Source: an uncultured Gemmatimonadaceae bacterium (GTDB lineage: Bacteria > Gemmatimonadota > Gemmatimonadetes > Gemmatimonadales > Gemmatimonadaceae). From it: a stretch of DNA of 64,000 nucleotides. Below are positions 31,742 through 51,717 of the stretch, in pieces. The stretch spans positions 1,517 to 65,516 of the forward strand of contig CAZWVG010000004.1 of NCBI GenBank assembly GCA_964637355.1, read 5' to 3'. The notes beneath the pieces are model-generated. The model saw nothing but the letters and a program-made list of their open reading frames with translations. It made no database searches and was not told the origin of the DNA. The position numbers and the translations under genes were made by a program. Every line of letters begins with the position of its first letter. Within the stretch, counting starts at the first letter, position 1.

Positions 31742-32320
31742 CTACTCCCGGTGCACGCTGCGAAAGTACGCGGCGAGATCGATCACGAGCGGTTCGCGTT
31801 CGGCATCGGGCTGCCACACGAGCGAGTCCACTAGGTTCTCCGGTTTATCGTCGCCAGGGCGCCATCGCTCTACGAGACGAGCAGCGGGATCGACGATCCA
31901 GTACTCTGGCACCGATTCGGATTGGTAGAGCGAACGCTTCTGGTGACGATCGACGTGCGCAGTAACTGGCGAGTCGACCTCAACCGCCAGAATCAGGCGA
32001 CCCACGTCCTCGAACCGTTCGGCGCCGCGACCGTTGATCGTTGGAATCACGAAGACGTCAGGCTCCACGCTTCGACTCGGTGAAAACGTCACCTCGGCAC
32101 GGGCCATCAGGCACTCGAGTGAGCACGAGCGAGCGTACGGGTGCAGCTGAAAGATCAGGTCACCCACTGCACGCTGGTGCAGCCACGACGGTGTCGGCGT
32201 TTCGAACAGCTCCCCGTCGATGACTTCGTAGCGCCGACCCTCGTCCGGGAGCGCGCGGACTTCCTCAATCGTCCAATCGCGGCGCTCGAAATCCGGTCGC
32301 AGGGGTGACGGCATGACCAT
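31742..32320 (-). CDS. Uma2-family (DUF820) restriction-endonuclease-like protein
   Basis: 'YEVIDGEL...PSWLHQ...EPDVFVIP...LAVEVDSP...KRSLYQSESVPEYWIVDP' is the canonical Uma2 layout. Confidence 0.8.
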   Translation of the reverse strand: MVMPSPLRPDFERRDWTIEEVRALPDEGRRYEVIDGELFETPTPSWLHQRAVGDLIFQLHPYARSCSLECLMARAEVTFSPSRSVEPDVFVIPTINGRGAERFEDVGRLILAVEVDSPVTAHVDRHQKRSLYQSESVPEYWIVDPAARLVERWRPGDDKPENLVDSLVWQPDAEREPLVIDLAAYFRSVHRE

Positions 32321-35860: not shown

Positions 35861-35957
35861 GGTTCCCTCCCTTCGACACGTTGTGAGAGCGCGCGGCACC
35901 CCAGTGCTGCGCAGCATGACACTAAAGCACGTGTGTGTGTAGGGCAAGCGCGGTGGG

Positions 35958-36309
35958 TCAACCCGTGCGTATCAGGGTAGGCTGATCGGTGACGAGAGGC
36001 GGAGGCCAATCGCGCACACCCAGACAACGAAGCGAGGACTGCGCAACTGAATCCCAGCGCACGCTCCGCAAGCGTCCACATTCTCGAAGCGCTCAACGAC
36101 GCGTCCATCGATCGTTGGTACGAGAAGCACGTCGCGCTCGACGCTCAGGCTTCCGGCGAACGCCACTTCGGCGGGGGGGCGAGGCACTCGAGCGCATACT
36201 GCCTGGCATAGTGGCGCAGGACCGAGAACATCTCGACCGCAGCCCGCTCGTGCAACAACGAATGCGCGGAGTTCGCGAACAGCTGTGGAGGAAGCGTCCG
36301 CGATCGCAT
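35958..36309 (-). pseudogene. decayed Uma2-family paralogue (N-terminus missing, at least two frameshifts)
   Basis: My reverse-strand translation gives 'QLFANSAHSLLHERAAVEMFSVLRHYARQYALECL', then a frameshift at the G7 run (36173-36179). It continues 'PAEVAFAGSLSVERDVLLVPTIDGRVVERFENVD', then a second shift to 'GRLRSVRWDSV...'. This is colinear with 'ELFETPTPSWLHQRAVGDLIFQLHPYARSCSLECLMARAEVTFSPSRSVEPDVFVIPTINGRGAERFEDVGRLILAVEVDSP' of the intact Uma2 at 31742-32320. Confidence 0.7.
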
Positions 36310-37074
36310 CTATGTCGACCGTGCCAGACTTACCGCTTCGGTCACGAGCAACTCGTGCGCCTCTCGCCCCTCATGACCCCGAAACACGCGGCCACTTGCT
36401 GAACGCGGATAGAAGCTCGGATGGGACAGGGCCGCCCAAACGGACGACCCGCCTGAATGCAGCTGAACGTTAGAAAGTATCGATAACCCGCGCTCGTCGA
36501 TCTCCCGCAGTGTCGTGCGCGACGTCCACGGTTCGAGTCCGCGGCCGAGCGGCGCGACGAGCGAGGGTACCCAGGCGCCCAGCACGAGCACGAGGCGAGG
36601 CTGCTGGACTTCGAGCTGTACCCTTAGGAAGTCGCGGCACTCGGTGACAAACCGTGGGCTTAGTGAACCAGGGTATCGGCCGGTCGTTGCGGCGCCAAGA
36701 CGTAGTCCCATGTAGAAGTTGGTGAAGAAGCACGACTCGAGCGGAACTCCAGCCTCGCGGAGCATCTTGGTCAGCGATCGCCAGGTGGGTTGATTAGGCG
36801 ATTCCATTCCAAGCTCAAGTGACTTCTCGTAGCCGCGCTCAGAATGAAAGTCGTGACCGAGTACCATGACACCGCCGACGGGAAACTCTGCCAGGACGTC
36901 GGAGCGCGCTGGGTTCCAGAGGCCTAGGCCTCCCGGGAAGAATGAGGTGTACGCGATGGGCGCAGGGACTTGCAAGCATCCGTCGGGATACCCGGCAATC
37001 GCCAGGTGCGCTTGCCAAAGCCGACGCGCAGAATGCTCGGCGGCGTCGCCACTCATTGATCTGCGTTCATTCAC
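36310..37074 (-). CDS. uracil-DNA-glycosylase-superfamily protein (divergent, family unassigned)
   Basis: The UDG-fold motif order is 'GGVMVLGHDF' (motif A position), 'CFFTNFYMG', 'PRLVLVLGAWV', 'LSHPSFY' (HPS motif B). The first codon at 37074 is GTG (alternative ATG at 37056). It overlaps or abuts the HNH gene. Confidence 0.55.
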   Translation of the reverse strand: MNERRSMSGDAAEHSARRLWQAHLAIAGYPDGCLQVPAPIAYTSFFPGGLGLWNPARSDVLAEFPVGGVMVLGHDFHSERGYEKSLELGMESPNQPTWRSLTKMLREAGVPLESCFFTNFYMGLRLGAATTGRYPGSLSPRFVTECRDFLRVQLEVQQPRLVLVLGAWVPSLVAPLGRGLEPWTSRTTLREIDERGLSILSNVQLHSGGSSVWAALSHPSFYPRSASGRVFRGHEGREAHELLVTEAVSLARST

Positions 37075-38014
37075 GGGGCAGCACCAACTTCATCACGAGT
37101 TTCCGCGCCTCATCGATTGAAAGAGGCGGTGTCCGTCGGTGCAAAACGGCGTGACAGTTAGGACAGACCGGTCGCAAGTCGGCGATAGGGTCGGTACTCC
37201 GCTGTTCTGAGGTTGTGGCAAGCGGATTCAGATGATGAACATGTATGAGATCCCTCGCAATCGGACCGTATCGGGCTTCCAGGCTCACCTCGCACACGCA
37301 GCAAGTCGTACCAAAATGTGCGATGCACGCGCGTCGCGCGGCGGAGTTCCTCTCACGCGCAGACTGCACAACATCACGCACACTCCCTTCGTCGAAGGTG
37401 CTAACCACATTCGGTTCTAACTCGCTGAAGGACCCATCGCTCGCGGGCGCACTTCCTTCAAGAGCGACACGCACGTACGTCGGCTGCGGAATCGGCTTGC
37501 CGCTCAACTCGCCAAGCAGGCGGACCATGCCCGGGTGATGCGACTTGGGAGTCGCCCCGTTGATGCCCGTGGACGCCGCCACCTCCAGATGCTTAAGGTG
37601 CGCTTCCTCAATCGCTTCAAGGCTATCTGCAAGCCCAGTCGACGCCTCAATCCCAAAGACGGCATACGTTGAGTCCGGAGCGGACGCATACCCTCCCGGC
37701 GACTGTAGGTCTCCGCGAGCGTTTAGCGCGAGAGCCGACTTCCTCCCGAGCGTCGGCAAGTGAACCATCACGGCAATCAGCCCTCGCTGCAACGCGATGG
37801 CTTCCAGACGGCCGACGTTGAGTCGCAGGCGGGACGGTGACTTGGAAAGGCCCCACCTCGCCGGAGTAAGTTCATGCGCTATGCGAATCGAAGTCGCCAG
37901 TCGATCGACGGCGAGCGCACGTACGCCTTTGTCTGGCAACAGGCGCTCGAGATAGGAGAATAGTTTCTCTTCCTTCCATCTCTCGACGTAGGCTTCGGAG
38001 TAGTCGGCCGTCAT
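37067..38014 (-). CDS. HNH endonuclease with an uncharacterised ~220-aa N-terminal domain
   Basis: C-terminal 'CCVCE...DLIHVHHLNPL...VCPNCHAVLH' is an HNH/His-Me finger with a Cys4 zinc site. Confidence 0.8.
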   Translation of the reverse strand: MTADYSEAYVERWKEEKLFSYLERLLPDKGVRALAVDRLATSIRIAHELTPARWGLSKSPSRLRLNVGRLEAIALQRGLIAVMVHLPTLGRKSALALNARGDLQSPGGYASAPDSTYAVFGIEASTGLADSLEAIEEAHLKHLEVAASTGINGATPKSHHPGMVRLLGELSGKPIPQPTYVRVALEGSAPASDGSFSELEPNVVSTFDEGSVRDVVQSARERNSAARRACIAHFGTTCCVCEVSLEARYGPIARDLIHVHHLNPLATTSEQRSTDPIADLRPVCPNCHAVLHRRTPPLSIDEARKLVMKLVLPRE

Positions 38015-38125
38015 GCTTCGAACGTGGGTAATGGAGTTCGACGTCTGAACGGAGCAAGAACTTGGCGATGCGTCGGCGTGTCGACTGCTGTATGCGTGAT
38101 CATTTCCTTTCCGCGTGTAGGAAGT

Positions 38126-38833
38126 TCATTCAAAACCGGCAACAGGAAGAGCATTCAACTCTGCCCTCGCCTCGCGCCACGCGGGATAGTGCTCGCTCAA
38201 CAGCTCCACAAACCGCGCACTGTGCGTCGGTACCCTCAGGTGCACCATCTCGTGCACCACCACGTACTCCAGGAGATCCTTCGGCTTCTTCACCAGCTCG
38301 GTGTTGAGCCTGATGTGATGCGCAGCCGGGTTGCAGCTCCCCCACTTCGTCTTCATGCGCTGTAGGAAGTACCGCGACACACGAACCTTCAGGCGACTCT
38401 CCCACTTCTCGATCAGCGGTGGTACGGCGCGGTGCAGCAGCGCCTTGTGCCAGGCGTGCAGTACGGCAGCCCGTTTAGATCGATCGGCCTCCGGGCGGAC
38501 GGTAAGCGTGATGCGCCGGTGGTCGAGCGTCACGCTCGGCTGTTCGTCACGCTCGACGACCTTCAGGAGATATCGCTTTCCCCACACGTAGTGGCTCTCG
38601 CGCGTGACCAAGGCCCGCCGCGGCTCGCGCGCCTGCGCTCGGAGCTCCCTCCGGCGGGCGCGAATCCAGCCCAGCCGCGAGATCGCATACGCGCGCGCCA
38701 CTTCGAGACGCGTCGCGGTAGGCGCCACGAGAGTCACACGCCCTGTCGGCGGATGTACCGACAGGTGCACGTGTTTCACATCCTTCCGCGTCACCGCGAC
38801 CGAAATGTCGCCGAGACGGATTGTCTCGCTCAT
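38126..38833 (-). CDS. M48/DUF45 (YgjP-like, SprT-like) zinc metallopeptidase
   Basis: '[36 protein letters not shown]' contains HExxH. ATGA start/stop overlap with hsdR at 38830-38833. Confidence 0.85.
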
Positions 38834-41800
38834 TCGTATCCGCGTATCTGCTTCAGCAGCCCGAACAACGCTTTGGTCGCTGCACGATTGCGGTGGAGCA
38901 GGGGGTATAGCGCGTTGAGCACCTGAGCCTCGCGCGCCTGGTCGCCCTTCCAGCCGGCAGGGGCGCGCTCACGAAGCGCGCGGTCGATCTCTAGGGCGAG
39001 GTCGACGAGCTCGCTCTCCTCCACCGGCGGCGACTCGGCGACCTGAGTCGCGTCGCCGTCCCGCTGAGCAAGGATCTGCGGGAGATTGCGGAAGATGACC
39101 GTGGCTTCCAGACGGCCGTGCAATGCCGCCGGCACCTCGTCGTGCGCTCCCTTCGCGGCTAGTTGCCGCGCCAACCCTTCGGCCTTTCGAAGGAACGCCT
39201 CGTACGCCGCGGTATCCGCGCGGCTCTGTGCGATGAGGTCATCGAGCAGTGCGGACATCTGCTCGTAGAAGCGCGGATCGGTCAGCTGATCGCGAATGAT
39301 GGTCTTGCGGACGTTGTTGATGATCCCTTCCGCGATCGCGTTGCGAGACAGCTTTCCTGCTGCATTGAGCTTGCGAGCGATCGCGTCGTTGATCCCAGTC
39401 TCGACGATCAGCTCGACGAGCGAGAGCTCGCCGAGCGCGCCAATGTTCGTCGCCCGGTCTGCCTGGACGTACGTGTTGAGGAGGTGGCGCATGTCGGCCT
39501 CGTACGGCTTTATGTCCAGCTCCTCACCCGAGTGCTTCTTGATGGCCGAGCGGATCTCGCCGTGGAACTCGACCTCCTGAAGGAGCTGCGCCGCCTCGGC
39601 GTCGCTGAAGCCCGTCTCGGCCAGGTTCTGCGCGATCTCAGCATAGGCACGGACAAAGGTTGCAACGCCCTTGTAGTACGCGATCCTCAGCGCCTCGGTC
39701 TCGTTGAGCGCATTCGGATTGGAAGCGTCGCCGCAGAAGTAGTGGAGGAACTGCTCCACCTGCTGCGGTGGCGCCACCGGCGCGCACAGGTAGTGCAGCG
39801 CCTCGCGTGCTTCGTCGAGCTTCCGGCGTCCCTCGACGAGCCAGTCCTTCAGCTGGATGTTGTTCGGCCCTCCATTGCCCGGGTCGGTGTCGAGTTCGTC
39901 GGAGCTGTAGACGGCGATCGCTTCCTCCACTTCTCCGAACAGCTCCTTGTAGTCGACGATGTGCCCGTAATCCTTGTCGTCGCCGTCGAGCCGGTTGGTG
40001 CGACAGATGGCTTGGAACAGGTTGTGGTCGCGCAGCTCGTTGTCGAGATAGATGTACGTGCAGCTTGGCGCGTCGAAGCCAGTGAGGAGCTTGCTCACCA
40101 CGATGAGCAGCTTGAGGTTGGCCGGTTCGTGAATGAAGCGGCGCTTCGCTTCCTCCTCGTACTGCGTGGTCGTCTGACCATACTTCAGCACGTGCTGGGT
40201 ATAGGTGTCGAACTTGTAGCGCTCGTCGCTCTTGGACGACTCGCGGGAGATCGCGTTGTGGTTCGGCTCGTACGACGTGATGATCCCGCAGTACTGCCCG
40301 AAGGGCGTGTTCTGAAAGAGGCGGAAGTAGTGGCACGCGTCGTAAATCGACGGCGCCACGAGGATCGCCGTCCCGCGATCGTTGTTGAGTCGCGGCTTGA
40401 GGCTGAAGTCCTCAATGATGTCGGCGATGATGCGCTGCTTGCGCTCTCCCGCGCTCATCAGCTTCTCGAGCGTCGCCCACGTCTTGCGCACGAGCGCCTT
40501 CTGGAAGTTGTTTAGCCCCCGAGTCTTCTGTTCGAACCACGCATCGATGGCGGCTTGTGAGGTGAGCCGTTGGGGTACGTCGCGCGCCTCGTACTTGAGG
40601 TCGAGGATCACGCCGTCGGCCACCCCTTCATGGAACTTGTAGGTGTGGATGTAGGTGCCGAAGACGTCGCGCGTCATCTGCTTGTCCTTGCGCAGCAGAG
40701 GTGTCCCTGTGAAGCCGATGAAGATCGCCCCCTCCAGCCAGCGCTTCATCTGCGCGTTCATGTCGCCCCCCTGCGTGCGGTGGCATTCGTCCACGAAGAC
40801 GTAGAAGCGCCCCAATGTACGAGGCGGTTCTCCCTGCAGGTCCGAGACGTCGAACTTGTGGAGCAGCGCGCATAGCAGGCGGGGCGTGGCGCTCCCCAGC
40901 TTCTCGACGAAGTCGGCTCGGGAAGTGATCCTCGGCGACGGCGAGTCTTCCCCGATGACCCCCGCGTTCATCATCACACCCATGATCTGCTTGTCCAGCT
41001 CATCGCGATCGGTGATGATGAGCACGCGAGCCGCAGCGTCGTGTTCCAGAAGCCACTTGGCGAGGAGCACCATCAGGATGCTCTTTCCGCTCCCCTGGGT
41101 GTGCCAGATGACGCCCCCTTCTCGCTTGGCGACCCGCTCCTGTGCCGCCTTCACGGCGAAGAACTGGTGCGGGCGCGGGACCTTTTTGTGGCCGGCGTCG
41201 AACACCATGAAGTTCCGGACGAGGTCGAGCAGTCTCGCCTTGCTGCACAGCTGCGCCAGCGGTCGATCGAGCAGCGCTCCTTCCACGGGAGTCGCGGTGT
41301 TCGGCGCCTCGTCCTTCCATTGCACGAAGAACTGCTCTGGCGTGCCGGTTGTCCCGTAGCGCAGCCCCTGCGAGTCGCTCCCGGCCAGTACCAGTTGCAC
41401 GGTGCTGAAGAACTGCTTGTTGAAAATCTCTTCCTGGTTGGTGATCAGCTGCCGCACGCCGTCGGCCAGCTCCACGGAGCTGCGCTTGAGCTCCAGCACC
41501 GCGATGGCGAGCCCGTTGAGATACAGCACCACATCCGGCCGTCGCTGATACCCGCCCTTGAGCGTCACCTCTTCGGCGAGCGCGAAGTCGTTCTGCTCCG
41601 GGTGCTCCCAGTCGATCAGGTGCACCGTCTCATGTGCCTGCCCCGGTGCCACCTGCACGGGGACGCCGTAGCGCAGGAGCTGGTACGTGCGCAGGTTCGC
41701 CTGGTAGAGCGTGACGCCCGTGGAGTCAGCGGCTGTTTCGAGTTTGTGTAGCGCGCCCGAGATGTGGGCGGCGGAATACCCGCGCGCAGCGAGGTTCGCG

Positions 41801-41952
41801 CGCAGGATCCCCGCTTCGATGCCGCGGTTGTTCTCGCGTTTGCTCCAGTCGCCGAGGTAGCGGAAGCCGAGTGAGTCGGGGCGCGAATCGTTCGTGAAGA
41901 GCGCGACGACGCGGTCTTGTGTGCGACGTTCGGAGCGCGGCCTCTCACTCAT
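38830..41952 (-). CDS. hsdR: type I restriction enzyme R subunit
   Basis: N-terminal PD...ELK nuclease ('[22 protein letters not shown]'), SF2 motor '[10 protein letters not shown]' and '[10 protein letters not shown]', and a C-terminal helical domain. The ATG at 41952 overlaps the upstream TGA (ATGA). Confidence 0.95.
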
Positions 41953-43367
41953 CACAGAAGCTCCCAATGTCCGCCCTTTCGCGGGCCGACGAAGCGGAGC
42001 TTGCCGGCCTTGACTAGCTTCGCCGTGGCCCGTTCCACCGCGCTGAGCGACTTGCCCAATCTCGCGGCGACGGCCGCCAGCGTCAGTTCAGGGTCGGTCG
42101 CCAGTGCGGCGAGAATCTGTTCCGGCGTTTTCACCCGCCTGTTCACCGGCGTTTCTACCGGCGTTTCTACCGGCGTTTCTACCGGCGTTTCTACCGGCGC
42201 TATTCCGCCGCCCGCTTCCGCCTCCCTTGTACGCCTAACGACATTCGCGGCGTACGGGAAGGTGATCCACAGCCCGGATTCCTCGGTCAGGATCACGGGC
42301 GCCGGGAATCCTGCCTGTCGGCAGGCGGCGAACATGCGCTCGATCCCACGCCCCCACGCCTCGATCTCTCCGGCCCGGAAGAAAACGTTGGCGAGATCCG
42401 GATTGAACGGCTGGGAAGCGTGCTTCTTCTTCAGCTGCGCCACGGTCCATGCCGATGGCAACTGACCGGGGTTCCAGATCATGAGCTTGTCGGCGTACAC
42501 GCTGATCTGAACTGGTACGCCTGACGCGTAGTCCTTGTGGATGATTGCGTTCAGCACTGCTTCCCGAAGAGCCGCCTCGGGAACCGGCAAGGTCTCGACC
42601 CGCTGAATACCACGGTACGTGATCCCCGCCTTGAGATACTTGGTGAGCAGTAGGTCAATCGTCCCGCCCACCTGCGAGAATAGGTCGCCGTGGACCTCGT
42701 CGTGGTACAGCAGGTCGTCGTCAGTCCGGAAGTAGCCGATCTTCACGTACGCGCCGGTCACGAACTGCTCCGGCTCGGGGTGGAACGCCAGCACGGCCGC
42801 GCGCTTGAGATGCGTGCCCTCGCGCAGATGCAGCTTTTCGATCAGCCCGGTCGTCGTTTCCTTCAGGTCGGCGGCACTCATGCGCCGGCTCTGACGGGCC
42901 TTGGCTCGAAACGCCTCGATCGCAGCCTTGGACAGGGCGCGTACCGAGACACTCGGAACCGGAACACCGTCCCACGCACGCCCCTGCTTGCGCAGTAGGA
43001 ACTTGTCGAGTGCGGCCCCTTTGAGCTCCTGCTTCGTGCTCCCGCTGCGAAGATGGTACTCCCCCTTGTAGCTCACGGGGTAGGGATACGGCTCAACGCG
43101 GATCTCGATCAGGTCCTTCCCCGATGCGCGCACCAGGAGCACGTCGGCCATGATGCCGAGCACGTCGCGAATCTTGTTCGGTAGGTCGGCGAGTAGCTTC
43201 TTCGCGTCCGCCACCCCAACGGCTACTCCCTTGTCATTGCGCCCGATCACCAGCACGCCGCCCTCGGCGTTAGCGAACCCACAGAGCCAACGCAGGTACT
43301 CGTCGCGCCACGTCTCCTTCCATTCGACGTGTTGGGATTCCATGCGAGAGCGGCGCCGCTCAGGCAT
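41952..43367 (-). CDS. AlbA_2 (Schlafen-like) / HATPase_c_4 / wHTH protein
   Basis: '[11 protein letters not shown]...[17 protein letters not shown]' is the AlbA_2 N-terminus, 'LNAIIHKDY' the ATPase-like middle, and there is a C-terminal winged helix. Start at 43367 or 43343. Confidence 0.75.
42145..42200. repeat. 12-bp tandem repeat (ACCGGCGTTTCT x4 plus a partial unit) encoding (VETP)n
   Basis: Units at 42145, 42157, 42169 and 42181, then 8 nt of a fifth. It is in frame in the linker before the C-terminal wHTH of the AlbA_2 protein. Confidence 0.95.
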
Positions 43368-45324
43368 CGGCCACTTCTGCAAGCACCTCAGACTCTACAT
43401 ATCGCTTGAATGACGCGTCGTCGGTAAAGCAGCGAAAGCCTGCTTGGCTCGCAAGCGTCACGGTGGCGAGTTCCTCATTGAGGAGCACGACCACAGGCTG
43501 ACTGAGCTCTTCCTGCAGGCCGTTAGGCCAGGCAAGATCGAGGACCGCCAACTGTTCTCCGCTGTTGGAATCGGCCAACTCGAACGACATCACGCCGCGC
43601 GGTAGCCCGCACGATTCCACCCACTCATTCATCTCCTCGAGCGCTTCCTCCTCCTCTTCGCTGCTGATACCGCCGCGGACGGCGAGTGGTGTCGGAAGTG
43701 TCGCGGACGCGCCGGCGAGCCATCGTACATCACCGTGCAACAGTTCTTCCATGCGGCGATTGAGTTCGGCTGCCAACAGCACCTTGCGGGCCTCGAGGAA
43801 GTCCCGGAACCGCTCGATCTTCCAGAGCGCGGGATCATCCGGTATCCACTGCGAGGCGAGCGCACCCTTGTGCGCCGCCTCGACCTTCGGGAAGTAGTCT
43901 TCCGGGAGGCGATCGGTGATGCGCAGGTTGGTGTCCTTGGTCAGGAAGCAGAAGTTCGCGAGTGCGTTCACCTCTGCCCGCTTGTAGTTGCGCTTGTAGA
44001 GTTGAGCCTTCGGGAAGATGTGGTGTACCTCCAACCGACTCATCCTCCCCAGCAGACTCGCCTTGAGCGGGAGGCCAGTGCCCCAGTCACGCGATTCACC
44101 CATTCGCGTTAGCAGATAGAGCACCGGATAGAAGCGCGCGCCAAGGCTCCAGCCGGTAAAGTGGCCCGCTTCTGCGCGGAGGCCGCCGTGCCAGAGTCGT
44201 AGTTGTTCGAGCAGCTTGTCGAGGCCACCGTCTGCGCCCTCGAGCGCGGCAAGGTCCTGATCGATGAATGATTCCGTCGAGCCCGAGAAGCGCCCCCACA
44301 TCGCTGCCTGCACATACCAGAAGAGCAACTTGTCGCGCTCGTGCTCATTCATCGGGCCAAGCCGATTCGCCAGTCGCTGGTCGAGATAGCGCACCATCAC
44401 CGGCACGCCAAATCGTCCGAAGAAAACCTGGTCGTGGTCGAGCCCGAGCCGGCCGGCGATCAGATTCAGGCTGGTCTCGATGTGCCGCGTCGTGCGCGCG
44501 AGCGCCTCCTGTACCTCAGCCGCAGACTTCTCGTGGAGGTACAGAAACTTGGCCTCGCCGGTGAGCACAGTGTTCACCGACCGAAGCAACCAGTCGAGCG
44601 AGAAGTGGTAGTCGCTCTGCGCCCATGACTTGAGGGTGGTCTTCATCGTATCACGCCCCTCTGGCCAGTCGGCGCAGATCTTCGCGAGCGCAAGATCTCC
44701 CTTGGAGAGTTTGGTTCCCCCGCTGTTCACGCGGTTGAAGATGTCGACGACTACGTCGAGCGACTTGTCAGTCCCAGTGACCTCCTCGATGTGCAGATCC
44801 ACGTCGATGATTCCGAGCAGCCGGCTCAAGCGAGCGACGTAGTCGCCGACCTTGGCGGAGAGCTGCGGCTGCGCCGTTAGGCGCGTGACGAACAGTCCGA
44901 GTCCCGACGTACCTTGCGCCATCAGCTCCGTCACGTCGATCCAGCGCGGATCGTCCTTCATCTTCGCCGGCTGGTAGAACTCGAAGCGTTCGTCTTCCAG
45001 GTGGAAGCGAAGTCCGGTAAACGCCTTGGCGTTGCCGTCGAAGAAGCGCGGGGGCTTGCCGCGTACGACGCCGTAGAGCGACGTCATGCGCTGCTGTCCA
45101 TCGAGCAACAGCTTTACGATGCCGGCAGCCAACGGGCCGTCGCCGCGATGCGTGGCCGTCAAGGACTCGGTTGCCCACACGAGCAGTCCACCGACGGGAT
45201 GCCGGCGATAGAGCGAGTCGAAGAGTCCGCGAACCTGGTCGCGATTCCAGACGTAGCCACGCTGGAACTCGGGCAGTGCCATGTGGCCGCTGTCGATGTG
45301 GTCGAGGATGGTGGAGATCTTCAT
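43360..45324 (-). CDS. DUF262 (ParB-like NTPase) + His-Me/DUF1524-like nuclease, GmrSD/BrxU-type, with an extra ~150-aa C-terminal domain
   Basis: 'LPEFQRGYVWNRDQV', 'LLDGQQRMTSL' and later 'LEVHHIFPKAQLY...NALANFCFLTKDTN'. Confidence 0.8.
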   Translation of the reverse strand: MKISTILDHIDSGHMALPEFQRGYVWNRDQVRGLFDSLYRRHPVGGLLVWATESLTATHRGDGPLAAGIVKLLLDGQQRMTSLYGVVRGKPPRFFDGNAKAFTGLRFHLEDERFEFYQPAKMKDDPRWIDVTELMAQGTSGLGLFVTRLTAQPQLSAKVGDYVARLSRLLGIIDVDLHIEEVTGTDKSLDVVVDIFNRVNSGGTKLSKGDLALAKICADWPEGRDTMKTTLKSWAQSDYHFSLDWLLRSVNTVLTGEAKFLYLHEKSAAEVQEALARTTRHIETSLNLIAGRLGLDHDQVFFGRFGVPVMVRYLDQRLANRLGPMNEHERDKLLFWYVQAAMWGRFSGSTESFIDQDLAALEGADGGLDKLLEQLRLWHGGLRAEAGHFTGWSLGARFYPVLYLLTRMGESRDWGTGLPLKASLLGRMSRLEVHHIFPKAQLYKRNYKRAEVNALANFCFLTKDTNLRITDRLPEDYFPKVEAAHKGALASQWIPDDPALWKIERFRDFLEARKVLLAAELNRRMEELLHGDVRWLAGASATLPTPLAVRGGISSEEEEEALEEMNEWVESCGLPRGVMSFELADSNSGEQLAVLDLAWPNGLQEELSQPVVVLLNEELATVTLASQAGFRCFTDDASFKRYVESEVLAEVADA

Positions 45325-45334
45325 GGATGTCGAA

Positions 45335-46063
45335 TCATGTCGCGGTAACAGGAACCCAGATCCAACCTTCGCCCTGCGTCACCTCGTCCGGTGGTGGAAC
45401 AAGGAGCTCGCGCCGAGTATCGAAGAGGTGCGCGATCACGGCGCAGATGCGAGCGTCATCCTTATCATCGTGCCCCAGCGAGGGTTGGCCGCCGAGGACT
45501 GCGGTGACGGCCGGTGTGCTACGGCTGGCGGCGGGATACGTCTCGATCGCGCGAAACCCATCACCATCGGTCCAAATGCCGCAGCTCTCGACGTGTGGTG
45601 CGAACTTGGCCAGGACGTGCATCCCTTTCGTTGCCTGGCTTCCGATCATGTCCTTGACCGCCGACAACGGACTCTTGCCGCGCTCGAAGAGGTAGCGTTC
45701 GGTGTAGCGGAACAAGTAGCGATTCAGCCCCGACGTTTTGTGGGGCTCGACGTAGCCCTGCCGGGAGATCAGGCGCACGAACTCGATCGGGAAGCCGAGC
45801 GGTGTGTCGATCGCCATGGTGATGCGCGGCGGCACTGCGGGATAGGGCGCGCGGCACTTGGTGAAGAGTGCACGGAGCCAGTCGCTGATGCTGCGTGACG
45901 AGGCGATGCACTCACGCAGGTTGCCGCGCCAAGGTGTTCCGACGATGGCCAGACTCTCGTCGAGAATGACGATCGCATCGCGGCTCGCGCCGTTCTTGTC
46001 GCAATTCCAGCCGCCGACGTCCCAGCCGATGAAGAACGACGGTCGCTCGATCTCGTTCTTCAT
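45335..46063 (-). CDS. DUF429-like predicted RNase-H-fold nuclease
   Basis: 'FFIGWDVGGWNC' (first strand with Asp), 'AIETYPAAS', 'HDDKDDARICAVIAHLF'. The family call is from memory. ATGA overlap with the hsdS stop. Confidence 0.5.
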   Translation of the reverse strand: MKNEIERPSFFIGWDVGGWNCDKNGASRDAIVILDESLAIVGTPWRGNLRECIASSRSISDWLRALFTKCRAPYPAVPPRITMAIDTPLGFPIEFVRLISRQGYVEPHKTSGLNRYLFRYTERYLFERGKSPLSAVKDMIGSQATKGMHVLAKFAPHVESCGIWTDGDGFRAIETYPAASRSTPAVTAVLGGQPSLGHDDKDDARICAVIAHLFDTRRELLVPPPDEVTQGEGWIWVPVTAT

Positions 46064-47313
46064 ACCAGCCGAGTCTTCCCGGTGAGCAGCTCCTGCATCA
46101 TCCCCTGCTTGAGCCCGCGAGTCTTGTCGCGGCGGGCTTCGAGGGCAGCGATCTCCGCATCCATGTCCGTGAGCACCTCCGCGATCGCAACCTGCTCGGT
46201 CACCGACGGCAAACGCATCTCGACACTGGCCACGTGCGCCCGAGTCGTCGCGTACACCTTCGTCCCGGCGGCGAGTCGCCGGAGTTGAGAGGCAAACGCC
46301 GGGCAGAACTGAAGGAAGCCCTTGAAGCCATCGGCCAGCACCGACTTGTCGAATCGCGCGGCAATCGTGTGCAGTCCCGCCACGACCTCGGCGGAGCCCA
46401 CACCCTTCATCTCCACTGACTTGCTCACCCCGGCGACGTCCTCCGACGCATCCGCGATCACCAGGTCACCGTCCTGCAGACGCGCGAGGCGCGCGGCCTT
46501 CGCTTCCGGAAGGCATGGCAGCAAGCCCGGCGTCATGAAAGAGTCGCCGGCGGCGTGCACGTCACCGTAGTGGACGTCTCTGACTCTTCCCTCGGGGAGA
46601 AGCTCGGCGCGCGAGTTGACTCCATTCCGCAGAAACGTGACGTGGTCCCCCAACCGCCTCACCTCCCACTCCCCACCAAACCCCGGCAGCCGCGTCTTCC
46701 CGGTGAGCAGTTGCTGCATGGCCGCCTGCTTGAGATCGCGTTTCTTGGCGTTGAGCCGCTCCAGCCCGTCCAGCAGCGCATCCATATCGCTCAAGGCGGA
46801 GGCGATGGCGCGTTGCTCGGCGAAGGTCGGCGGAAGTGGGACCTGTATCGAACGCACCTGACTGAAGTTCAGTCCTTGTCGATTTCCTCCAGCTTGGAAG
46901 CTGTCAACTTGCCGCTGACCGCCGGATGAGAGAAGAAATTGGCAGAGGTACTGCGGATCCAAAGACTGAGCTGCTGTGCGGACGACGCACACGTGCTGAT
47001 TGACGTTGCCACCTTCGAGTCGGGCGTCGGCGACCGCGCAGCGACCGATCGAAGCACCGGTGATGTTTAGGAGGACGTCGCCACGTTGCAGCTCGGTGTC
47101 AGGGAAGGTCGCGTGCGTCGAATCGTCGATGAACGCAATGTCATCGAGCAACAAGACTCCCCACCCAACATTCTGACTTCGCACAAAAGGGCGACCCGCA
47201 TTCCTGTATACGCGTTGCCCGCCGCTCGGCGTAACCCCGCTACCAACCTTCACCGCGCGTTCGCCAATCGACTCGACTGTCCATTCTGCCGGAAGGATGC
47301 CGATGGCCGTCAT
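46060..47313 (-). CDS. hsdS: type I R-M specificity subunit with two target-recognition domains
   Basis: Central 'FAEQRAIASALSDMDALLDGLERLNAKKRDLKQAAMQQLLTGKTRLPGF' and C-terminal 'TEQVAIAEVLTDMDAEIAALEARRDKTRGLKQGMMQELLTGKTRL' conserved repeats. A 17-nt identical DNA repeat occurs at 46073 and 46694. ATG at 47313 (alternative GTG at 47337). Confidence 0.9.
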   Translation of the reverse strand: MTAIGILPAEWTVESIGERAVKVGSGVTPSGGQRVYRNAGRPFVRSQNVGWGVLLLDDIAFIDDSTHATFPDTELQRGDVLLNITGASIGRCAVADARLEGGNVNQHVCVVRTAAQSLDPQYLCQFLLSSGGQRQVDSFQAGGNRQGLNFSQVRSIQVPLPPTFAEQRAIASALSDMDALLDGLERLNAKKRDLKQAAMQQLLTGKTRLPGFGGEWEVRRLGDHVTFLRNGVNSRAELLPEGRVRDVHYGDVHAAGDSFMTPGLLPCLPEAKAARLARLQDGDLVIADASEDVAGVSKSVEMKGVGSAEVVAGLHTIAARFDKSVLADGFKGFLQFCPAFASQLRRLAAGTKVYATTRAHVASVEMRLPSVTEQVAIAEVLTDMDAEIAALEARRDKTRGLKQGMMQELLTGKTRLV

Positions 47314-47327
47314 CTTGTATCCCCGCT

Positions 47328-49748
47328 TCACCTCCACGCTGATCTCATCGACTTGAGGTGATCGTCAACCCGCACTGAATGCCCCGCCACGTTGTCGACG
47401 AGCGTTTGCAGCGGAGTCACGTATCGCTCCGCCAGCTCGCGAAGTCGACTGGTTAGTCTCTGAGACACACGATCCAGCTCCCCATTCACCTCAGCCGACA
47501 ACCGCGCCATCCACTTCTCGTCCACAACCAGCGTCTTCACCTCCCCCTCGGTCAGTGTCGGATACTTGTCATACGACAACCCGTCGAGCGCCGCCTCCAG
47601 CTCCCTCACCGCACGCTTGAGTGAGGCCTCACTCTCGGAGAGTTCCAGCCAGCGCTTCAGCACCGCCGCTTCGTCCTTCGCCTCCTTGTCGCCCTTGATC
47701 TCCTTCAACCGCGCGTTGACCTCCGCCTTGGCCACCTTGTCGAGCGCGCCGAAGTATCCCTCCTCGCCACCGTGCTCCTCCTCCATCTCGGCGAGTTCCG
47801 AGGTGAGTCCCTCCAGCGCCACCTGCATCGTCTCGACCGCCTCCTGCTCCTTCGCGAAGCACTGCGCGACGAGCAACGGCTTGGGAACCAGGTCGCACGC
47901 CCACCCCTTGTCCTTCCGCTTCCCCTTCTTGTCGGTCTCTACGATGCGCGCGGTGCGCGCCACCCAGCCGTCGGCGGCGATGAGGTAGCAGTCGTCCTGC
48001 ATCGTCTCGCCCCAGAAGTCCATCAGGTGCTGGTAGACGTCGTAGGAATCGAGCAGCGGTGCCCCCTTGAAGGCATCGAGCAGCCGCTCGGCGATGGACT
48101 CGATGAGCGTCCTGGGATGGCCCCCCTTGTCGAACGCCGTGAGCTGCAACGTGGCGTCGTGGCGCCAGCGGTCGAAGCGCTCGCGCGACAGCCGGTTGAA
48201 GGCGGCGAACTCCTCGTGCTCGAGGATGGCCTTCTTCACCTCGCCGATCGGGAGCCTGAGCTGCGAGTACCCCGGGCGTCCGGCCGACTCGAACAGCACC
48301 GCGCGCACGGACGGCAGCACTTCCCAGTAGGTGCCGAGTGCGTCAAGGTCGCGATTGGGGATCCCTCCGCGCAGGTGGCCCTCGATGTCCTGCAGGTCCT
48401 CCGGCTCGCTCGTGTCGACGTAGCGCGGGAGGTTGAGGTTGAAGTCGTTCTTCGCATCGGCGATCTCGTCCAGCGGCACCAGGCGCGCGTAGCGCGGAAC
48501 GTCTACCTGCTTGCGGAAAGTGTCGACGATGCGATGGATGTCCTGCTCGCGCAGCCGGTTCTTGTTCCCGTCCTTGATGAACCCCTTGCTCGCGTCAATC
48601 ATGAAAACGCCCTTGCGTGCCGCTGCGTTCTCCTTGTCGAGCACCAGAATGCAGGCGGGGATCCCCGTGCCGTAGAACAAGTTCGCCGGGAGCCCGATGA
48701 TTCCCTTGAGTATCCCGGAGCGCACCAGCTTCTCGCGGATCGCTGCCTCGGCGTTGCCGCGGAAGAGCACGCCGTGTGGAAGGATGCAGGCTCCTTTCCC
48801 TGCGCTCCTGAGGGAGCGGATGATGTGCAGCAGGAAGGCATAGTCTCCCTGCTTGGCCGGCGGCACTCCCCAGGCAAAGCGTTGCCATGGGTCGTTGTCA
48901 GGCGTTAGGCCAACGCTCCACGTCTTGACCGAGAACGGCGGATTGGCGACGACGTAGTCGTAGGTGCGCAGCTGCTCGCCGTCCTTGAACTTGGGCGCGG
49001 CAAGCGTGTTCCCCTGCTGGATGTTGGCCGTGGGGAAGTCGTGCAGGATCATGTTCATGCGCGCGAGACCGGCGGTGGTCACGTCCATCTCCTGCCCTTC
49101 CAGCGTGATGTGCTTTCCCGCCTGCGCGGCGACCTTGAGCAGCAGCGAGCCCGAGCCGCACGTCGGGTCGTACGCGGTCGTCGATGCCTTGGTGTTCTGC
49201 GCCGAGATACCGATCACCTGGGCGATCACGCGGCTCACCTCGGCCGGCGTGTAGAACTGCCCTTTGCTCTTGCCACTCTCGGTGGCGAAGTGGCGCATCA
49301 GATATTCGTAGGCGTCGCCGAGAATGTCGTCGTGGTCGGCGCGGTTCTGCGAGAAGTCGAGCTCCGGCTTCTCGAAGATCGCGATCAGATCCGACAGGCG
49401 ATCCACCATCGCCTTCCCTTCGCCCAGCTTGTTGGGATCGTTGAAGTCGGGAAAGTCGCTGCGCGCCAGCCGCTCGTTCGCCTCGATGAGGGGCTGGATG
49501 ACCTGCGTGTTGATCCTGTCGCCGATGTCGCTCCTTCCCTTGAGCGCCACCATGTCCGCGAAGCTCGAGCCCTTCGGGATGATGACGGGCGGCGCGAAGT
49601 CTCTGCTGTTCCCGTACTTGTCGCTGATGTACTTGATGAACAGCATGAACAGGACGTAGTCCTTGTACTGACTTGCATCCATGCCGCCGCGCAGCGCGTC
49701 ACACGACGCCCAGATGGAGGAGTAGAGATCGGACTTCTTTAGTGCCAT
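47328..49748 (-). CDS. hsdM: type I R-M N6-adenine DNA methyltransferase subunit, long form with a ~300-aa coiled-coil C-terminal extension
   Basis: HsdM N-domain 'LYSSIWASCDALRGGMDASQYKDYVLFMLFIKYISDKY', AdoMet 'AYDPTCGSGSLL', catalytic 'VVANPPFS'. Confidence 0.95.
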   Translation of the reverse strand: MALKKSDLYSSIWASCDALRGGMDASQYKDYVLFMLFIKYISDKYGNSRDFAPPVIIPKGSSFADMVALKGRSDIGDRINTQVIQPLIEANERLARSDFPDFNDPNKLGEGKAMVDRLSDLIAIFEKPELDFSQNRADHDDILGDAYEYLMRHFATESGKSKGQFYTPAEVSRVIAQVIGISAQNTKASTTAYDPTCGSGSLLLKVAAQAGKHITLEGQEMDVTTAGLARMNMILHDFPTANIQQGNTLAAPKFKDGEQLRTYDYVVANPPFSVKTWSVGLTPDNDPWQRFAWGVPPAKQGDYAFLLHIIRSLRSAGKGACILPHGVLFRGNAEAAIREKLVRSGILKGIIGLPANLFYGTGIPACILVLDKENAAARKGVFMIDASKGFIKDGNKNRLREQDIHRIVDTFRKQVDVPRYARLVPLDEIADAKNDFNLNLPRYVDTSEPEDLQDIEGHLRGGIPNRDLDALGTYWEVLPSVRAVLFESAGRPGYSQLRLPIGEVKKAILEHEEFAAFNRLSRERFDRWRHDATLQLTAFDKGGHPRTLIESIAERLLDAFKGAPLLDSYDVYQHLMDFWGETMQDDCYLIAADGWVARTARIVETDKKGKRKDKGWACDLVPKPLLVAQCFAKEQEAVETMQVALEGLTSELAEMEEEHGGEEGYFGALDKVAKAEVNARLKEIKGDKEAKDEAAVLKRWLELSESEASLKRAVRELEAALDGLSYDKYPTLTEGEVKTLVVDEKWMARLSAEVNGELDRVSQRLTSRLRELAERYVTPLQTLVDNVAGHSVRVDDHLKSMRSAWR

Positions 49749-49796
49749 TCGGTGAGTTGGGCTAAGTATTGCGTGCAGCGGGCGCCCGAATCGGGG

Positions 49797-50648
49797 TCAG
49801 GCGCTGGCTTGCGCGGCTTGCAGTTCGTTGAGTGTGCGGCCGTCCTTTGCTTTCCACGCGTCGCGTCCATTTGCACTGCGGCCGAGAATCACACCGGCGG
49901 CCGAACTTGGCGAGGGGAACACATAGTTCTGCGTGAAGACGTACCTGTCTTTTCCCGCCTTGAGTACGCCGTTCTCGGCGAGTGCAGCTCGCAGTTCGAC
50001 TATGTACGGATAACAGGACTTGACCTCGTCCAATGCGGCTTCGCTCCCTGTGAGGACGACGAAGCCCTCGGCGGTCTCGAATCCCCGTGCTGTCACGCCG
50101 CGTCCGCTCATCGAGAGTTCCGGCGCAGCGGGCGCCTGTAGCGCTACAGTCGAGAAGACGCCGAGTCCAAGGACCGGGAAGCACATCAGCGCTTCTTCGA
50201 GAAAGCCCTCAGCCTCCGCAGCGTCCGATTCGGATAGCGAGGGAAGGGCGGGGCGATTGCCGTTGTCGAGCGTGCAGCGCTTGGCTTTGTCAGCCAGGTC
50301 GACCAAGCGGGACTCGAGGAACTGAACGTGCGCCTTGTTGAGGTTCTCGTCCTTGCTGGTGAAGGCGAAGCAGGTCGTCCAGAAGTCCTTGTTCGCCGCG
50401 TGCTGCTCGAGCCGAGGGCGAATCGGATCGCCTTCTCCGACGTAGACGCGCGGTAGGCCGGACTCTTCGGGCGGGCCGACGAGGACGTAGACTCCAGTTC
50501 GCGTCATCTCCCGTCGGTGCCTCCCCTCCGGGAAGAGAGGGCGCGGTATCAGCAGCCCGGCGCCGCTCCAATTGGACTTCTCGATGATGCGGATCCCCTC
50601 GGGATCGCCGGCGGGGACGAAGATCTTGATGGTGTAGGGTCGCGGCAT
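49797..50648 (-). CDS. GIY-YIG nuclease-like protein with a DUF4357-type C-terminal domain
   Basis: 'TGVYVLVG...VYVGEGDPIRPRLEQH...' is GIY-YIG-like. C-terminal 'AEGFVVLTGSEA...' resembles DUF4357. It is the first gene of the minus-strand chain. Confidence 0.6.
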   Translation of the reverse strand: MPRPYTIKIFVPAGDPEGIRIIEKSNWSGAGLLIPRPLFPEGRHRREMTRTGVYVLVGPPEESGLPRVYVGEGDPIRPRLEQHAANKDFWTTCFAFTSKDENLNKAHVQFLESRLVDLADKAKRCTLDNGNRPALPSLSESDAAEAEGFLEEALMCFPVLGLGVFSTVALQAPAAPELSMSGRGVTARGFETAEGFVVLTGSEAALDEVKSCYPYIVELRAALAENGVLKAGKDRYVFTQNYVFPSPSSAAGVILGRSANGRDAWKAKDGRTLNELQAAQASA

Positions 50649-50982
50649 GACGATCACTCACCGCCGAAATGACAGCGGTCATCTGGGCATCGCCCGTGTG
50701 AGGCGCTCCGAGCTTGGCGCGGTTCGCGCTCGCATCGCGGCGTTGCTGTCACTTCTCCCCCACCCCCCTGTCTCCGCATCGCGCGCTCCGGTGACCAGCT
50801 CTCGGACGTCCGACCTGACCGAGCCACGATAACCACGGGTACCGACAGCGGCCAGAACCGTGGTTCCGGGGAATCGACCGAACTCCTCGGCACAAGCACC
50901 ACGCCTCTCCAGCGAACACGCTGCCGGAAGCGTGGCCGGTCGCGACGGCAAGGGAAACATCTGAGCTGGCGCAGAAACTATA

Positions 50983-51056: not shown

Positions 51057-51632
51057 ATGGGAAAGATCTCAATCGACGTCGATCAGGAGGTGTTCGAGCA
51101 TCTGCAGGGACGCGCCACGCCGTTTGTCGACAGTCCCAACGATGTACTGCGCCGCCTTCTTCTGACGCCGCTACCCGAAGTTCCGGAGGCGTCGAGGACT
51201 CGACAGCGAGCTACCTCAGCTGAGCGACGTGCGGCGAGACACGGTGGCCCGGTGCCGGCCGACGCCTTCGTCTCGCGAGTGATTCATCAGGAGCTCGGCG
51301 AGGGCTTCAAACGCCGCCCGCCGTTCCGGATGATGTTCGAATCGAAAGACGCGCTGGCGTATTTCCAGAACTTCAACAAGGAGACGGATCATCTCTGGTA
51401 TCGGGTGACCCAGAATCCTTGGCGCGAACTCACGTCAGCGCGGAAGAAGGCATGGCTCTGCCTCAGCAACCCCGCCGAGGGTTACTGCTACGTGATCCCC
51501 GTTTCCGAAATCCAGGCGCAGGTGCAGCGCGCGCGCTGGAGCCGTCCGTATCTGGAGGTCAACATCGATCCGGCCACCTCACGCTGGACGGAACTCGATT
51601 GGCGGCTGGATCAGTATCTCGTTCGTGCCTAA
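51057..51632 (+). CDS. hypothetical protein with a SeqA-N/Arc-like ribbon-helix-helix N-terminus
   Basis: 'ISIDVDQEVFEHLQGRATPFVDSPNDVLRRLL' parallels the SeqA N-terminal pattern I.vD.e.y.yi....ges.sdiLRR.L. The C-terminal 110 aa are unassigned. Confidence 0.45.
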   Translation: MGKISIDVDQEVFEHLQGRATPFVDSPNDVLRRLLLTPLPEVPEASRTRQRATSAERRAARHGGPVPADAFVSRVIHQELGEGFKRRPPFRMMFESKDALAYFQNFNKETDHLWYRVTQNPWRELTSARKKAWLCLSNPAEGYCYVIPVSEIQAQVQRARWSRPYLEVNIDPATSRWTELDWRLDQYLVRA

Positions 51633-51717
51633 CAATAGTCTGCGAGAATTTCGGCGTCGTTGAGCGCTGACTGACTCGAGTGGCTCGCTGAGACGTCGAT
51701 CAACTTTCGACCAACTA

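Follow-up and report, generated by a model that had tools for sequence, protein, structure and literature searches.

An HNH endonuclease gene overlapped by a uracil-DNA glycosylase-like gene at the edge of a restriction island: a candidate cassette of two separable defence modules

Does an HNH endonuclease gene that is overlapped by a gene for a uracil-DNA glycosylase (UDG)-like protein encode one half of a single machine, or are the two proteins independent neighbours? The question is raised by two minus-strand genes in a 64,000-nt stretch of DNA from an uncultured Gemmatimonadaceae bacterium (assembly GCA_964637355.1, contig CAZWVG010000004.1, positions 1,517 to 65,516), the whole of which we call the window. 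The upstream member of the pair, the HNH gene (37067..38014), is an open reading frame (ORF) with an ATG start and encodes a McrA-type HNH endonuclease of 315 aa; the second, the UDG-like gene (36310..37074), encodes a glycosylase-like protein of the UDG superfamily, 254 aa long from a GTG start. A preliminary description of this DNA proposed a glycosylase-guided restriction module, in which the glycosylase would excise a modified phage base and the nuclease would cut at or near the abasic site. The explanation that we prefer, and in which we place about even confidence, is a looser one: a cassette whose two genes were acquired and are expressed together but encode separable defence modules that target DNA, namely a type IV-like HNH nuclease and a Brig-like glycosylase from a new UDG family, linked facultatively and recurrently.

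Is the smaller protein a glycosylase at all? It scores 24.2 bits against the Pfam UDG model (PF03167), whose gathering cut-off is 24.3 and for which a match is precomputed for many of its close homologues, and its NCBIfam matches to UdgX and family 4 are weak (17-20 bits vs cut-offs of 125-190). No sequence-level match to family 1 was found. An AlphaFold2 model built from an alignment of 52 homologues has a predicted local distance difference test value (pLDDT) of 94.7 and a predicted template modelling score of 0.91. Foldseek matched this model to UdgX, family-4 UDG, SMUG1 and TDG in the PDB at probability 1.0 (best E 2.6e-7); there were 57 matches at E<=0.001, and the best 50 of these 57 all belong to the UDG superfamily. 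The 254-aa protein is thus predicted to have a UDG-superfamily fold in which motif A is replaced. The preliminary description had staked its proposal on this fold, and the model returns it. The closest solved structures are those of UdgX and family 4 (6AIL, 1UI0 and 4ZBX; template modelling score 0.45-0.57 on the query and up to 0.72 on the target), which, like our protein, have TN closing beta-2, then a long conserved loop, and HPS as motif B, whereas the sequence identity is only 11-19%. We considered and rejected membership of family 4 or UdgX: the iron-sulphur four-Cys set is absent (C115 and C146 alone are conserved), as are GE(A/G/Q)PG and the crosslinking His, and the position of UdgX His109 in the KRRIH loop is taken by a Gly that is invariant in the family.

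Residue conservation was read from the same 52 homologues, which come from more than 10 phyla. The four motifs quoted in the preliminary description (VLGHDF, FFTNFYMG, LVLVLGAWV and SHPSF) occur in that order and lie on invariant or nearly invariant columns. The motif A variant GHDFH (residues 73-77, 36844..36858, minus strand) directly follows beta-1 (residues 69-73) in the model; H74 and F76 are invariant, and G73, D75 and H77 are at least 90% conserved, with N at position 75 in one homologue. FFTN (residues 116-119, 36718..36729, minus), invariant at all four positions, ends beta-2 (residues 115-119) and is aligned with the YVTN of UdgX in a profile search. LVLVLGAWV covers residues 161-169, and motif B, HPS (residues 218-220, 36415..36423, minus), with invariant H218 and P219, comes after the last beta-strand (residues 209-216). 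GHDFH, FFTN and HPS were placed by alignment and model, and the coordinates of all the quoted motifs were checked by translation. Ahead of beta-1 in the model the family carries an extra N-terminal segment of ~65 aa with the signature FFPGGxGLW, located from the homologues and the translation and reading FFPGGLGLW in the window (residues 45-53, 36916..36942, minus); F45, F46, P47, G48, G49 and G51 are invariant, and L52 and W53 nearly so. The third position of motif A is the catalytic Asp in family 1 (GQDPY) and an Asn in families 2 and 3 (GxNPG). D75 holds this third position, and we take it to act as the catalytic Asp of family 1 does. N119 corresponds, by its place in the alignment, to the base-recognising Asn of uracil-type UDGs. 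Family 1 UNG, with the Asp of motif A, an Asn after beta-2 and HPS, has the same catalytic logic, whereas its Tyr that excludes 5-substituted uracils is replaced in our protein and the N-terminal segment is extra. These residues lead us to infer that the protein is an active glycosylase of the monofunctional type, whose substrate is probably a base derived from uracil or thymine.

The partner had been described as a Cys4 HNH protein with an unassigned N-terminal domain, and both parts of that description hold. Its beta-beta-alpha-Me nuclease domain with a Cys4 zinc site, which occupies the last 95 residues (37070..37354, minus), was delimited by alignment, a translation check and a match to McrA. 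Pfam HNH matches residues 255-293 at 20.9 bits, and the profile of the family aligns with the E. coli McrA HNH domain (6GHC) at E 2e-5. The sites are C238/C241, HVHH at 258-261, C284-P-N-C-H288 and H292; C238, C241, C284, C287, H260, H261, H288 and H292 are invariant or nearly so in 52 HNH homologues. On sequence grounds we regard this C-terminal domain as an intact, McrA-homologous Cys4 HNH nuclease domain. It is preceded by a low-confidence linker (residues 193-220, 37355..37438, minus; pLDDT <50), which is poorly conserved and gap-rich in the family alignment, and by an N-terminal domain (residues 1-192, 37439..38014, minus) that AlphaFold2 models with a pLDDT of ~95 over residues 10-180. 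The fold of this domain appears to be specific to the family: Foldseek against PDB and BFVD gave no match at E<=0.001, and there was no Pfam, NCBIfam or PADLOC match. W54, G68, H139 and P176/P178 are conserved in it. None of the known modified-DNA-binding domains (the McrA N-domain, SRA, EVE/PUA or SBD) was found in the HNH protein by fold or Pfam. The domain is possibly a reader of DNA or of DNA modification.

Both genes belong to conserved protein families, with 232 database matches for the UDG-like protein and 969 for the HNH protein, although a look-up of source records returned no name for the proteins; 119 of the 120 HNH homologues listed have the two-domain build, and the N-terminal domain alone as a homology query recovered 2 proteins only, owing to the word index. 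About a quarter of the HNH family (P0133-P0197, 430-500 aa) has an added N-terminal extension of 115-170 aa, falling into at least four unrelated sequence classes. One of these extensions (P0163) gave a weak EVE match (E 0.015), and a PDB sequence search with two of the classes gave no match. By analogy, such varied extensions look like the shuffling typical of modification-dependent nucleases.

How are the two genes arranged, and did they arrive together? With its GTG start at 37074, the UDG-like gene shares 8 nt with the end of the HNH gene, including the TGA stop (37067..37074, minus; junction ...CCC CGT GAA TGA). An alternative ATG at 37056, the start adopted by public gene calls, would give a protein of 248 aa and a 10-nt gap after the HNH stop instead of an overlap. 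Upstream, a spacer of 111 nt by coordinates (38015..38125, minus) separates the HNH gene from a YgjP-like/M48 gene, and a separate transcription start within it is possible; a scan of 35900-38900 returned no sigma-70-like promoter and no intrinsic terminator. This layout is as the preliminary description gave it. The GC content at third codon positions (GC3) is 0.655 in the HNH gene and 0.678 in the UDG-like gene, the lowest of the region, vs 0.79-0.85 in downstream host genes, 0.84-0.88 in other host genes and 0.75-0.88 in the adjacent type I restriction-modification (R-M) genes, so that the excess of A/T-ending codons noticed earlier by eye is real. Among 690-nt GC windows of the 64 kb the pair falls in the lowest 7%. 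The break in GC3 between the M48 gene (0.78) and the HNH gene (0.66) suggests that the pair was acquired separately, and since its GC3 is unlike that of the adjacent R-M genes, a separate and later insertion is suggested as well. This suggests that the HNH and UDG-like genes were acquired jointly and more recently than their R-M neighbours. The pair forms the distal edge of a type I R-M/GmrSD island; downstream of it follow an outer-membrane beta-barrel gene and an M24 aminopeptidase gene, both with host-like GC3. The low GC3 and the adjoining R-M and GmrSD genes agree with the foreign origin and the position at the edge of a defence island that had been proposed. No tRNA gene that could mark an island boundary was found within the window.

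If the two proteins formed one machine, would their genes not keep company in other genomes? The strictest form of this idea is an obligate two-step restriction by base excision, in which the glycosylase excises a modified phage base and the HNH enzyme, detecting either the abasic site or the DNA-bound glycosylase through its N-terminal domain, brings about a strand break, neither protein being effective alone. The 8-nt overlap and the common composition of the two genes speak for it, and as no known reader fold is recognisable in the N-terminal domain, it could conceivably bind a new ligand, for instance an abasic site. We scanned one genome per species (185,579 species genomes), obtained 173 pattern-confirmed relatives of the UDG-like gene and studied the best 80 of them with flanks of up to 8 kb. 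The N-domain HNH family was beside the UDG-like gene at none of these 80 other loci. An all-against-all comparison of ORFs within 5 kb at 81 loci revealed no shared neighbour of the UDG-like gene, and the host genes that flank the pair in the window had no synteny with any of the loci. At 77 of the 80 no HNH gene was nearby and no partner of any type was conserved. Seen from the HNH family, a downstream gene could be read in 13 distinct contexts: 10 are without a UDG-fold gene (with another downstream gene or none) and 3 have one, which in 2 cases comes from a different UDG family. The exact pair was found only on contigs that apparently belong to the window's own population. An obligate, conserved two-gene system therefore fails the test of neighbour conservation that the preliminary description had itself set, and each family occurs mostly without the other, so that the two are separable modules.

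The contexts of the HNH family contain other gene associations. Two HNH homologues, 42% identical to the one in the window, are followed by a conserved pair of genes for 138 aa and 345 aa (L188:1314-2764 and L273:1698-2137) that is ~90% identical between the two loci; at the second a partial ORF of PD-(D/E)xK-like appearance lies upstream. Another homologue (P0130), present on 13 contigs, is followed by a gene for a 278-aa Pfam-negative protein and then by a DUF5131 (Gp37/Gp68-like) gene (L085:6162-7826). At one further locus of the family (L197) the upstream gene looks NADAR/YbiA-like by eye.

Could the adjacency in the window then be a matter of chance? McrA-type HNH genes with other N-terminal regions lie within ~0.6 kb of the UDG-like gene at 2 of the 80 independent loci, L018 and L042, vs a rough expectation well below 0.1. 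At L018 the HNH gene is convergent and ~250 nt away. At L042 (L042:119-2666, in an Akkermansiaceae metagenome-assembled genome, MAG) a gene for a 348-aa McrA-type HNH protein, a second HNH ORF (weak HNH/HNH_5) and the UDG-like gene lie close together on the same strand; the first HNH protein has a non-homologous N-terminal region that, by eye only, resembles EVE/PUA and for which Pfam gave no significant match. The most revealing evidence is on the other side, where the partner can also change. At the HNH homologues P0129 (L189/L190) and P0128 (L091), a gene for a 218-aa protein of a different UDG-superfamily family overlaps the HNH gene by 8 nt, with the same GTG...TGA geometry as in the window. 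This 218-aa protein, with the motifs VGQNPA and AYCNLVRCRT and 24.4 bits to PF03167, is family-4-like, and its similarity to the UDG-like family of the window is at the superfamily level only (hhalign probability 2.4%); the L091 copy is frameshifted and lies on a low-coverage contig. Both loci adjoin type I (HsdR) or MmeI-like R-M genes. Because UDG-fold genes are rare per genome, such a swap of partners within one HNH family at an identical junction is hard to explain by chance, and we conclude that the HNH/UDG linkage is facultative but recurrent. Near the swapped pairs (L189:4166-6600 and L091:4956-8356) there is also a gene for a conserved helix-hairpin-helix protein of ~230-250 aa (GIGPKTADYF), 58% identical between the loci, and these loci may hold a trio of HNH, UDG and helix-hairpin-helix genes.

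Other restriction-type genes accompany the UDG-like family in a similar manner. HsdR lies 17 nt upstream of the UDG-like gene at L010, and an SNF2 defence-type helicase gene lies directly upstream at L057 and L067. Of the four closest relatives examined, which are 59-67% identical, three are near restriction-type genes: one adjoins a helicase-HNH gene (L081), another a DUF499-HEPN gene (L102), and a third, of 61% identity, follows a SauUSI-like PLD-helicase-DUF3427 gene at a distance of 82 nt (L083:2821-7518); the fourth (L100) has a nondescript context. Two Uma2-family genes that flank the relative at L083 are 70-73% identical to the Uma2 gene of the window at 31742-32320. In a Flavobacteriales MAG (L009:7318-8729), a gene for a 222-aa GIY-YIG and RAMA (restriction-enzyme adenine-methylase-associated) protein is directly upstream of the UDG-like gene and overlaps it by 7 nt, with an HsdR homologue ~2.5 kb away.

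These recurrences, the L189/L091 swap and the two HNH neighbours at L018 and L042, also speak for the obligate two-step scheme. Since the HNH proteins of L018 and L042 are without the N-terminal domain, that domain cannot be the specific coupler that the scheme needs. Brig1, Brig2 and Brig3 protect as single genes, and the varied extensions in a quarter of the HNH family are typical of self-contained modification-dependent nucleases. With the solitary state of most members of both families, this makes the obligate scheme unlikely in our estimate. A more flexible, modular excise-then-cut strategy would couple N-domain HNH nucleases to interchangeable UDG-fold glycosylases, with the excision product or the bound glycosylase licensing the cleavage of phage DNA that contains non-canonical pyrimidines; this too we hold to be improbable. 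Could the glycosylase instead protect its own host? In such an arrangement the HNH enzyme would attack DNA with a given base or lesion, and the glycosylase would clear the host chromosome of it, in a role like that of a methyltransferase, or would otherwise restrain the nuclease. The tight translational coupling, with the gene of the putatively toxic nuclease first, would suit this, as would the recurrence of the pairing with non-orthologous UDG-fold genes; however, most members of the HNH family have no such partner, most UDG-like genes are solo and our literature search found no precedent, and we consider self-protection very improbable indeed. As to the functional pairing put forward in the preliminary description, a facultative link (L018, L042, L189, L091 and others) and plausible cooperation stand, and the obligate glycosylase-guided module is not supported.

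Perhaps the UDG-like protein is not concerned with defence at all. It could be an ordinary repair glycosylase of a rare UDG family, acting on uracil, hypoxanthine or oxidised pyrimidines, whose adjacency to a stand-alone type IV HNH gene is meaningless. All the classical catalytic features of UDGs, including the uracil-type Asn and HPS, are kept, relatives are annotated simply as uracil-DNA glycosylase family proteins, and most homologues are found amid housekeeping genes with almost no PADLOC matches among the neighbours. The distribution of the family is at odds with this. At E<=1e-30 it comprises 473 clusters among 1.84 billion representatives, with members in Gemmatimonadota, Acidobacteriota, Chloroflexota, Planctomycetota, Cyanobacteria, Proteobacteria, Bacteroidota, Firmicutes, Actinobacteriota, Verrucomicrobiota and others, and being so sparse and patchy across more than 10 phyla it looks like an accessory gene. 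The UDG-like gene averages 3.5 GC points under its own locus (negative in 52 of 67 loci; Wilcoxon p = 7e-7) and falls in the lowest GC decile at 37% of loci. Getz et al. report a sporadic, AT-rich profile for defence glycosylases (Dag, Brig2) as opposed to repair enzymes, and the low GC content and patchiness of the UDG-like family give the same profile. Paralogues and a tandem duplication, the lack of conserved synteny even among the closest relatives, the restriction-type nucleases beside those relatives and, in the window, the overlap with an HNH gene of the same foreign GC3 also argue against a repair enzyme, and we find this explanation quite improbable.

The tandem duplication is in a Ktedonobacterales MAG (L033:2445-4671). 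Two distant copies are present in several Vicinamibacterales and Clostridia genomes: on contigs OZ253457.1 (L038, L048) and OY760734.1 (L039, L059), and in the MAGs of L049/L054 and L065/L068. We also looked for fusion partners among ten N-terminally extended members; no extra Pfam domain was present, and the extensions are therefore probably over-called starts.

How might the preferred cassette of two separable modules work? The pair was probably acquired as one piece and is probably co-transcribed and translationally coupled. Its first module would be a type IV-like McrA-type HNH endonuclease with an intact nuclease domain and a structurally novel N-terminal domain of 190 aa; the second would be a single-domain glycosylase from a sporadic branch of the UDG superfamily with the catalytic logic of a monofunctional UDG (Asp75, Asn119, His218). 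We hypothesize that the glycosylase acts on invading DNA, where it would flip out and remove a non-canonical base; since the recognition Asn is kept, a pyrimidine derived from uracil or thymine is the probable target. The abasic sites may then block replication, as with Brig1, Brig2 and Brig3, while the HNH enzyme may cut foreign DNA, modified or damaged, independently or additively. The modelled folds, the conserved motifs, the overlapping genes, their foreign composition, the island setting and the facultative but recurring linkage are results of the analysis; glycosylase activity, substrate class, defence function and cooperation between the proteins are in each case inferred.

Several results weigh against this reading. 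The immediate neighbours of the UDG-like gene, 147 of which were examined with Pfam and PADLOC, are for the most part housekeeping genes of metabolism or the envelope (M24/M20 peptidases, oxidoreductases, ThiC, DUF1501, RDD and GGT among them), and as only ~3 of them match defence helicase models, the general enrichment in defence islands that the preliminary description had proposed to look for is not demonstrated. The phage and plasmid collections that were searched held no UDG-like homologue and only matches at the level of the HNH domain; among viral contigs the UDG-like family is rare (5 matches, 2 of them full length), and the HNH matches cover the nuclease domain only. In PADLOC-DB v2 the UDG-like protein has no match, and the HNH protein has no convincing one (E 0.014-0.018 to ZorE and to a type II restriction endonuclease model). 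The guess at the substrate depends on three residues, and the modification dependence of the HNH protein would follow by analogy to McrA and EVE-HNH enzymes only.

What do known systems suggest? Brig1, which the preliminary description had correctly named, is a UDG-superfamily alpha-glucosyl-5-hydroxymethylcytosine DNA glycosylase that acts in anti-T-even defence (PMC11078745). The UDG-like protein resembles it in its single-domain UDG fold, in having family-4 UDGs as best structural neighbours, in its sporadic occurrence and its place in a defence island, and in the proposed excision of bases to leave replication-blocking abasic sites. It differs in its motif A (GLNPG-type in Brig1, GHDFH here), in having the invariant Asn119 where Brig1 has Glu147 on the Watson-Crick face (PMC11078745), in the extra ~65-aa N-terminal FFPGGxGLW segment and in the overlapping nuclease gene. 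Membership of the Brig1 family was tried and rejected: hhalign gave the family profile a probability of only 0.3% when compared with the Brig1 sequence, which was obtained by machine reading of the published supplement. Brig2 and Brig3 have been reported since (bioRxiv 10.1101/2025.10.29.685425; 10.64898/2026.02.25.707755), and all three are single-gene anti-phage defences of the UDG superfamily that excise modified bases. Brig2, a defence glycosylase that acts on modified thymidines, has homologues that are likewise sporadic and located in AT-rich regions. The nearest precedent for a glycosylase with a partner is Brig3-BapA, where two genes overlap in one operon and the partner broadens the range; there, however, the gene of the partner is the downstream one and encodes a glucosyl hydrolase instead of a nuclease. 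The published active site of Brig3 (N50-P51-S52, E55, D127 and N225), compared by description only, is unlike GHDFH/FFTN/HPS. No Brig entry was among the best 50 of the 57 PDB fold matches of the UDG-like model.

On the nuclease side, McrA (6GHC) and EVE-HNH enzymes such as VcaM4I (PMC7897488; PMC6765204) share with the HNH protein a C-terminal Cys4 HNH domain, the order of a non-catalytic N-terminal domain, a linker and the HNH domain, and the setting in defence islands, whereas the N-terminal domain in the window matches neither that of McrA nor any PUA, EVE or SRA fold. Restriction that begins with the excision of a base and ends with a strand break at the abasic site is known from restriction glycosylases of the PabI family (PMC10273834). 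These have the unrelated HALFPIPE fold, are sequence-specific, methylation-sensitive and paired with a methyltransferase, and are single enzymes, not a glycosylase with an HNH nuclease. Our literature search found no paper on a defence pair of a UDG-fold protein and an HNH nuclease.

The island that the pair adjoins runs from 38126 to 50657 on the minus strand and was assigned from Pfam matches. Following the spacer there are genes for the YgjP-like M48 metallopeptidase (38126-38833), HsdR (38830-41967), a Schlafen AlbA_2/HATPase_c_4/winged helix-turn-helix protein (41952-43382), a GmrSD_N (DUF262) protein (43360-45324), a 242-aa ORF without a Pfam match (45335-46063), HsdS (46060-47337), HsdM (47328-49748) and a DUF4357 protein (49797-50657). 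The three genes between hsdS and hsdR (41952-46063), namely the GmrSD_N/DUF262, Schlafen and 242-aa genes, are additional, and neighbouring genes there overlap or almost abut, as in a single operon. Past the DUF4357 gene, two plus-strand genes for Pfam-negative proteins of 191 aa and 498 aa (51057-53214) have a GC3 of 0.67-0.72, and this low value indicates that the foreign region may reach ~53.2 kb.

Defence by glycosylases is a recent theme: Brig1 was described in 2024 and Dag1/2, Brig2 and Brig3 in 2025-26, so far as compact single-gene effectors. The locus studied here draws attention to a UDG family, so far uncharacterised, that comprises several hundred clusters in many phyla and has a catalytic triad like that of family 1 in an otherwise family-4-like fold. 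It also shows that genes for UDG-fold glycosylases recur immediately downstream of genes for restriction-type nucleases, and within a single HNH family the overlapping UDG-fold partner is of two unrelated kinds. If the proteins do cooperate, base-excision immunity would be linked with classical type IV restriction, and the glycosylase would be a new modified-base-specific enzyme, useful for mapping DNA modifications in phages and in epigenetics. Were excision followed by cutting, the pair would represent restriction by two enzymes in a manner so far undescribed, and GHDFH/FFPGGxGLW would define a UDG family that is functionally new. If they do not cooperate, the locus would be a clean case of the stacking of defence genes and would still provide a candidate Brig-like family.

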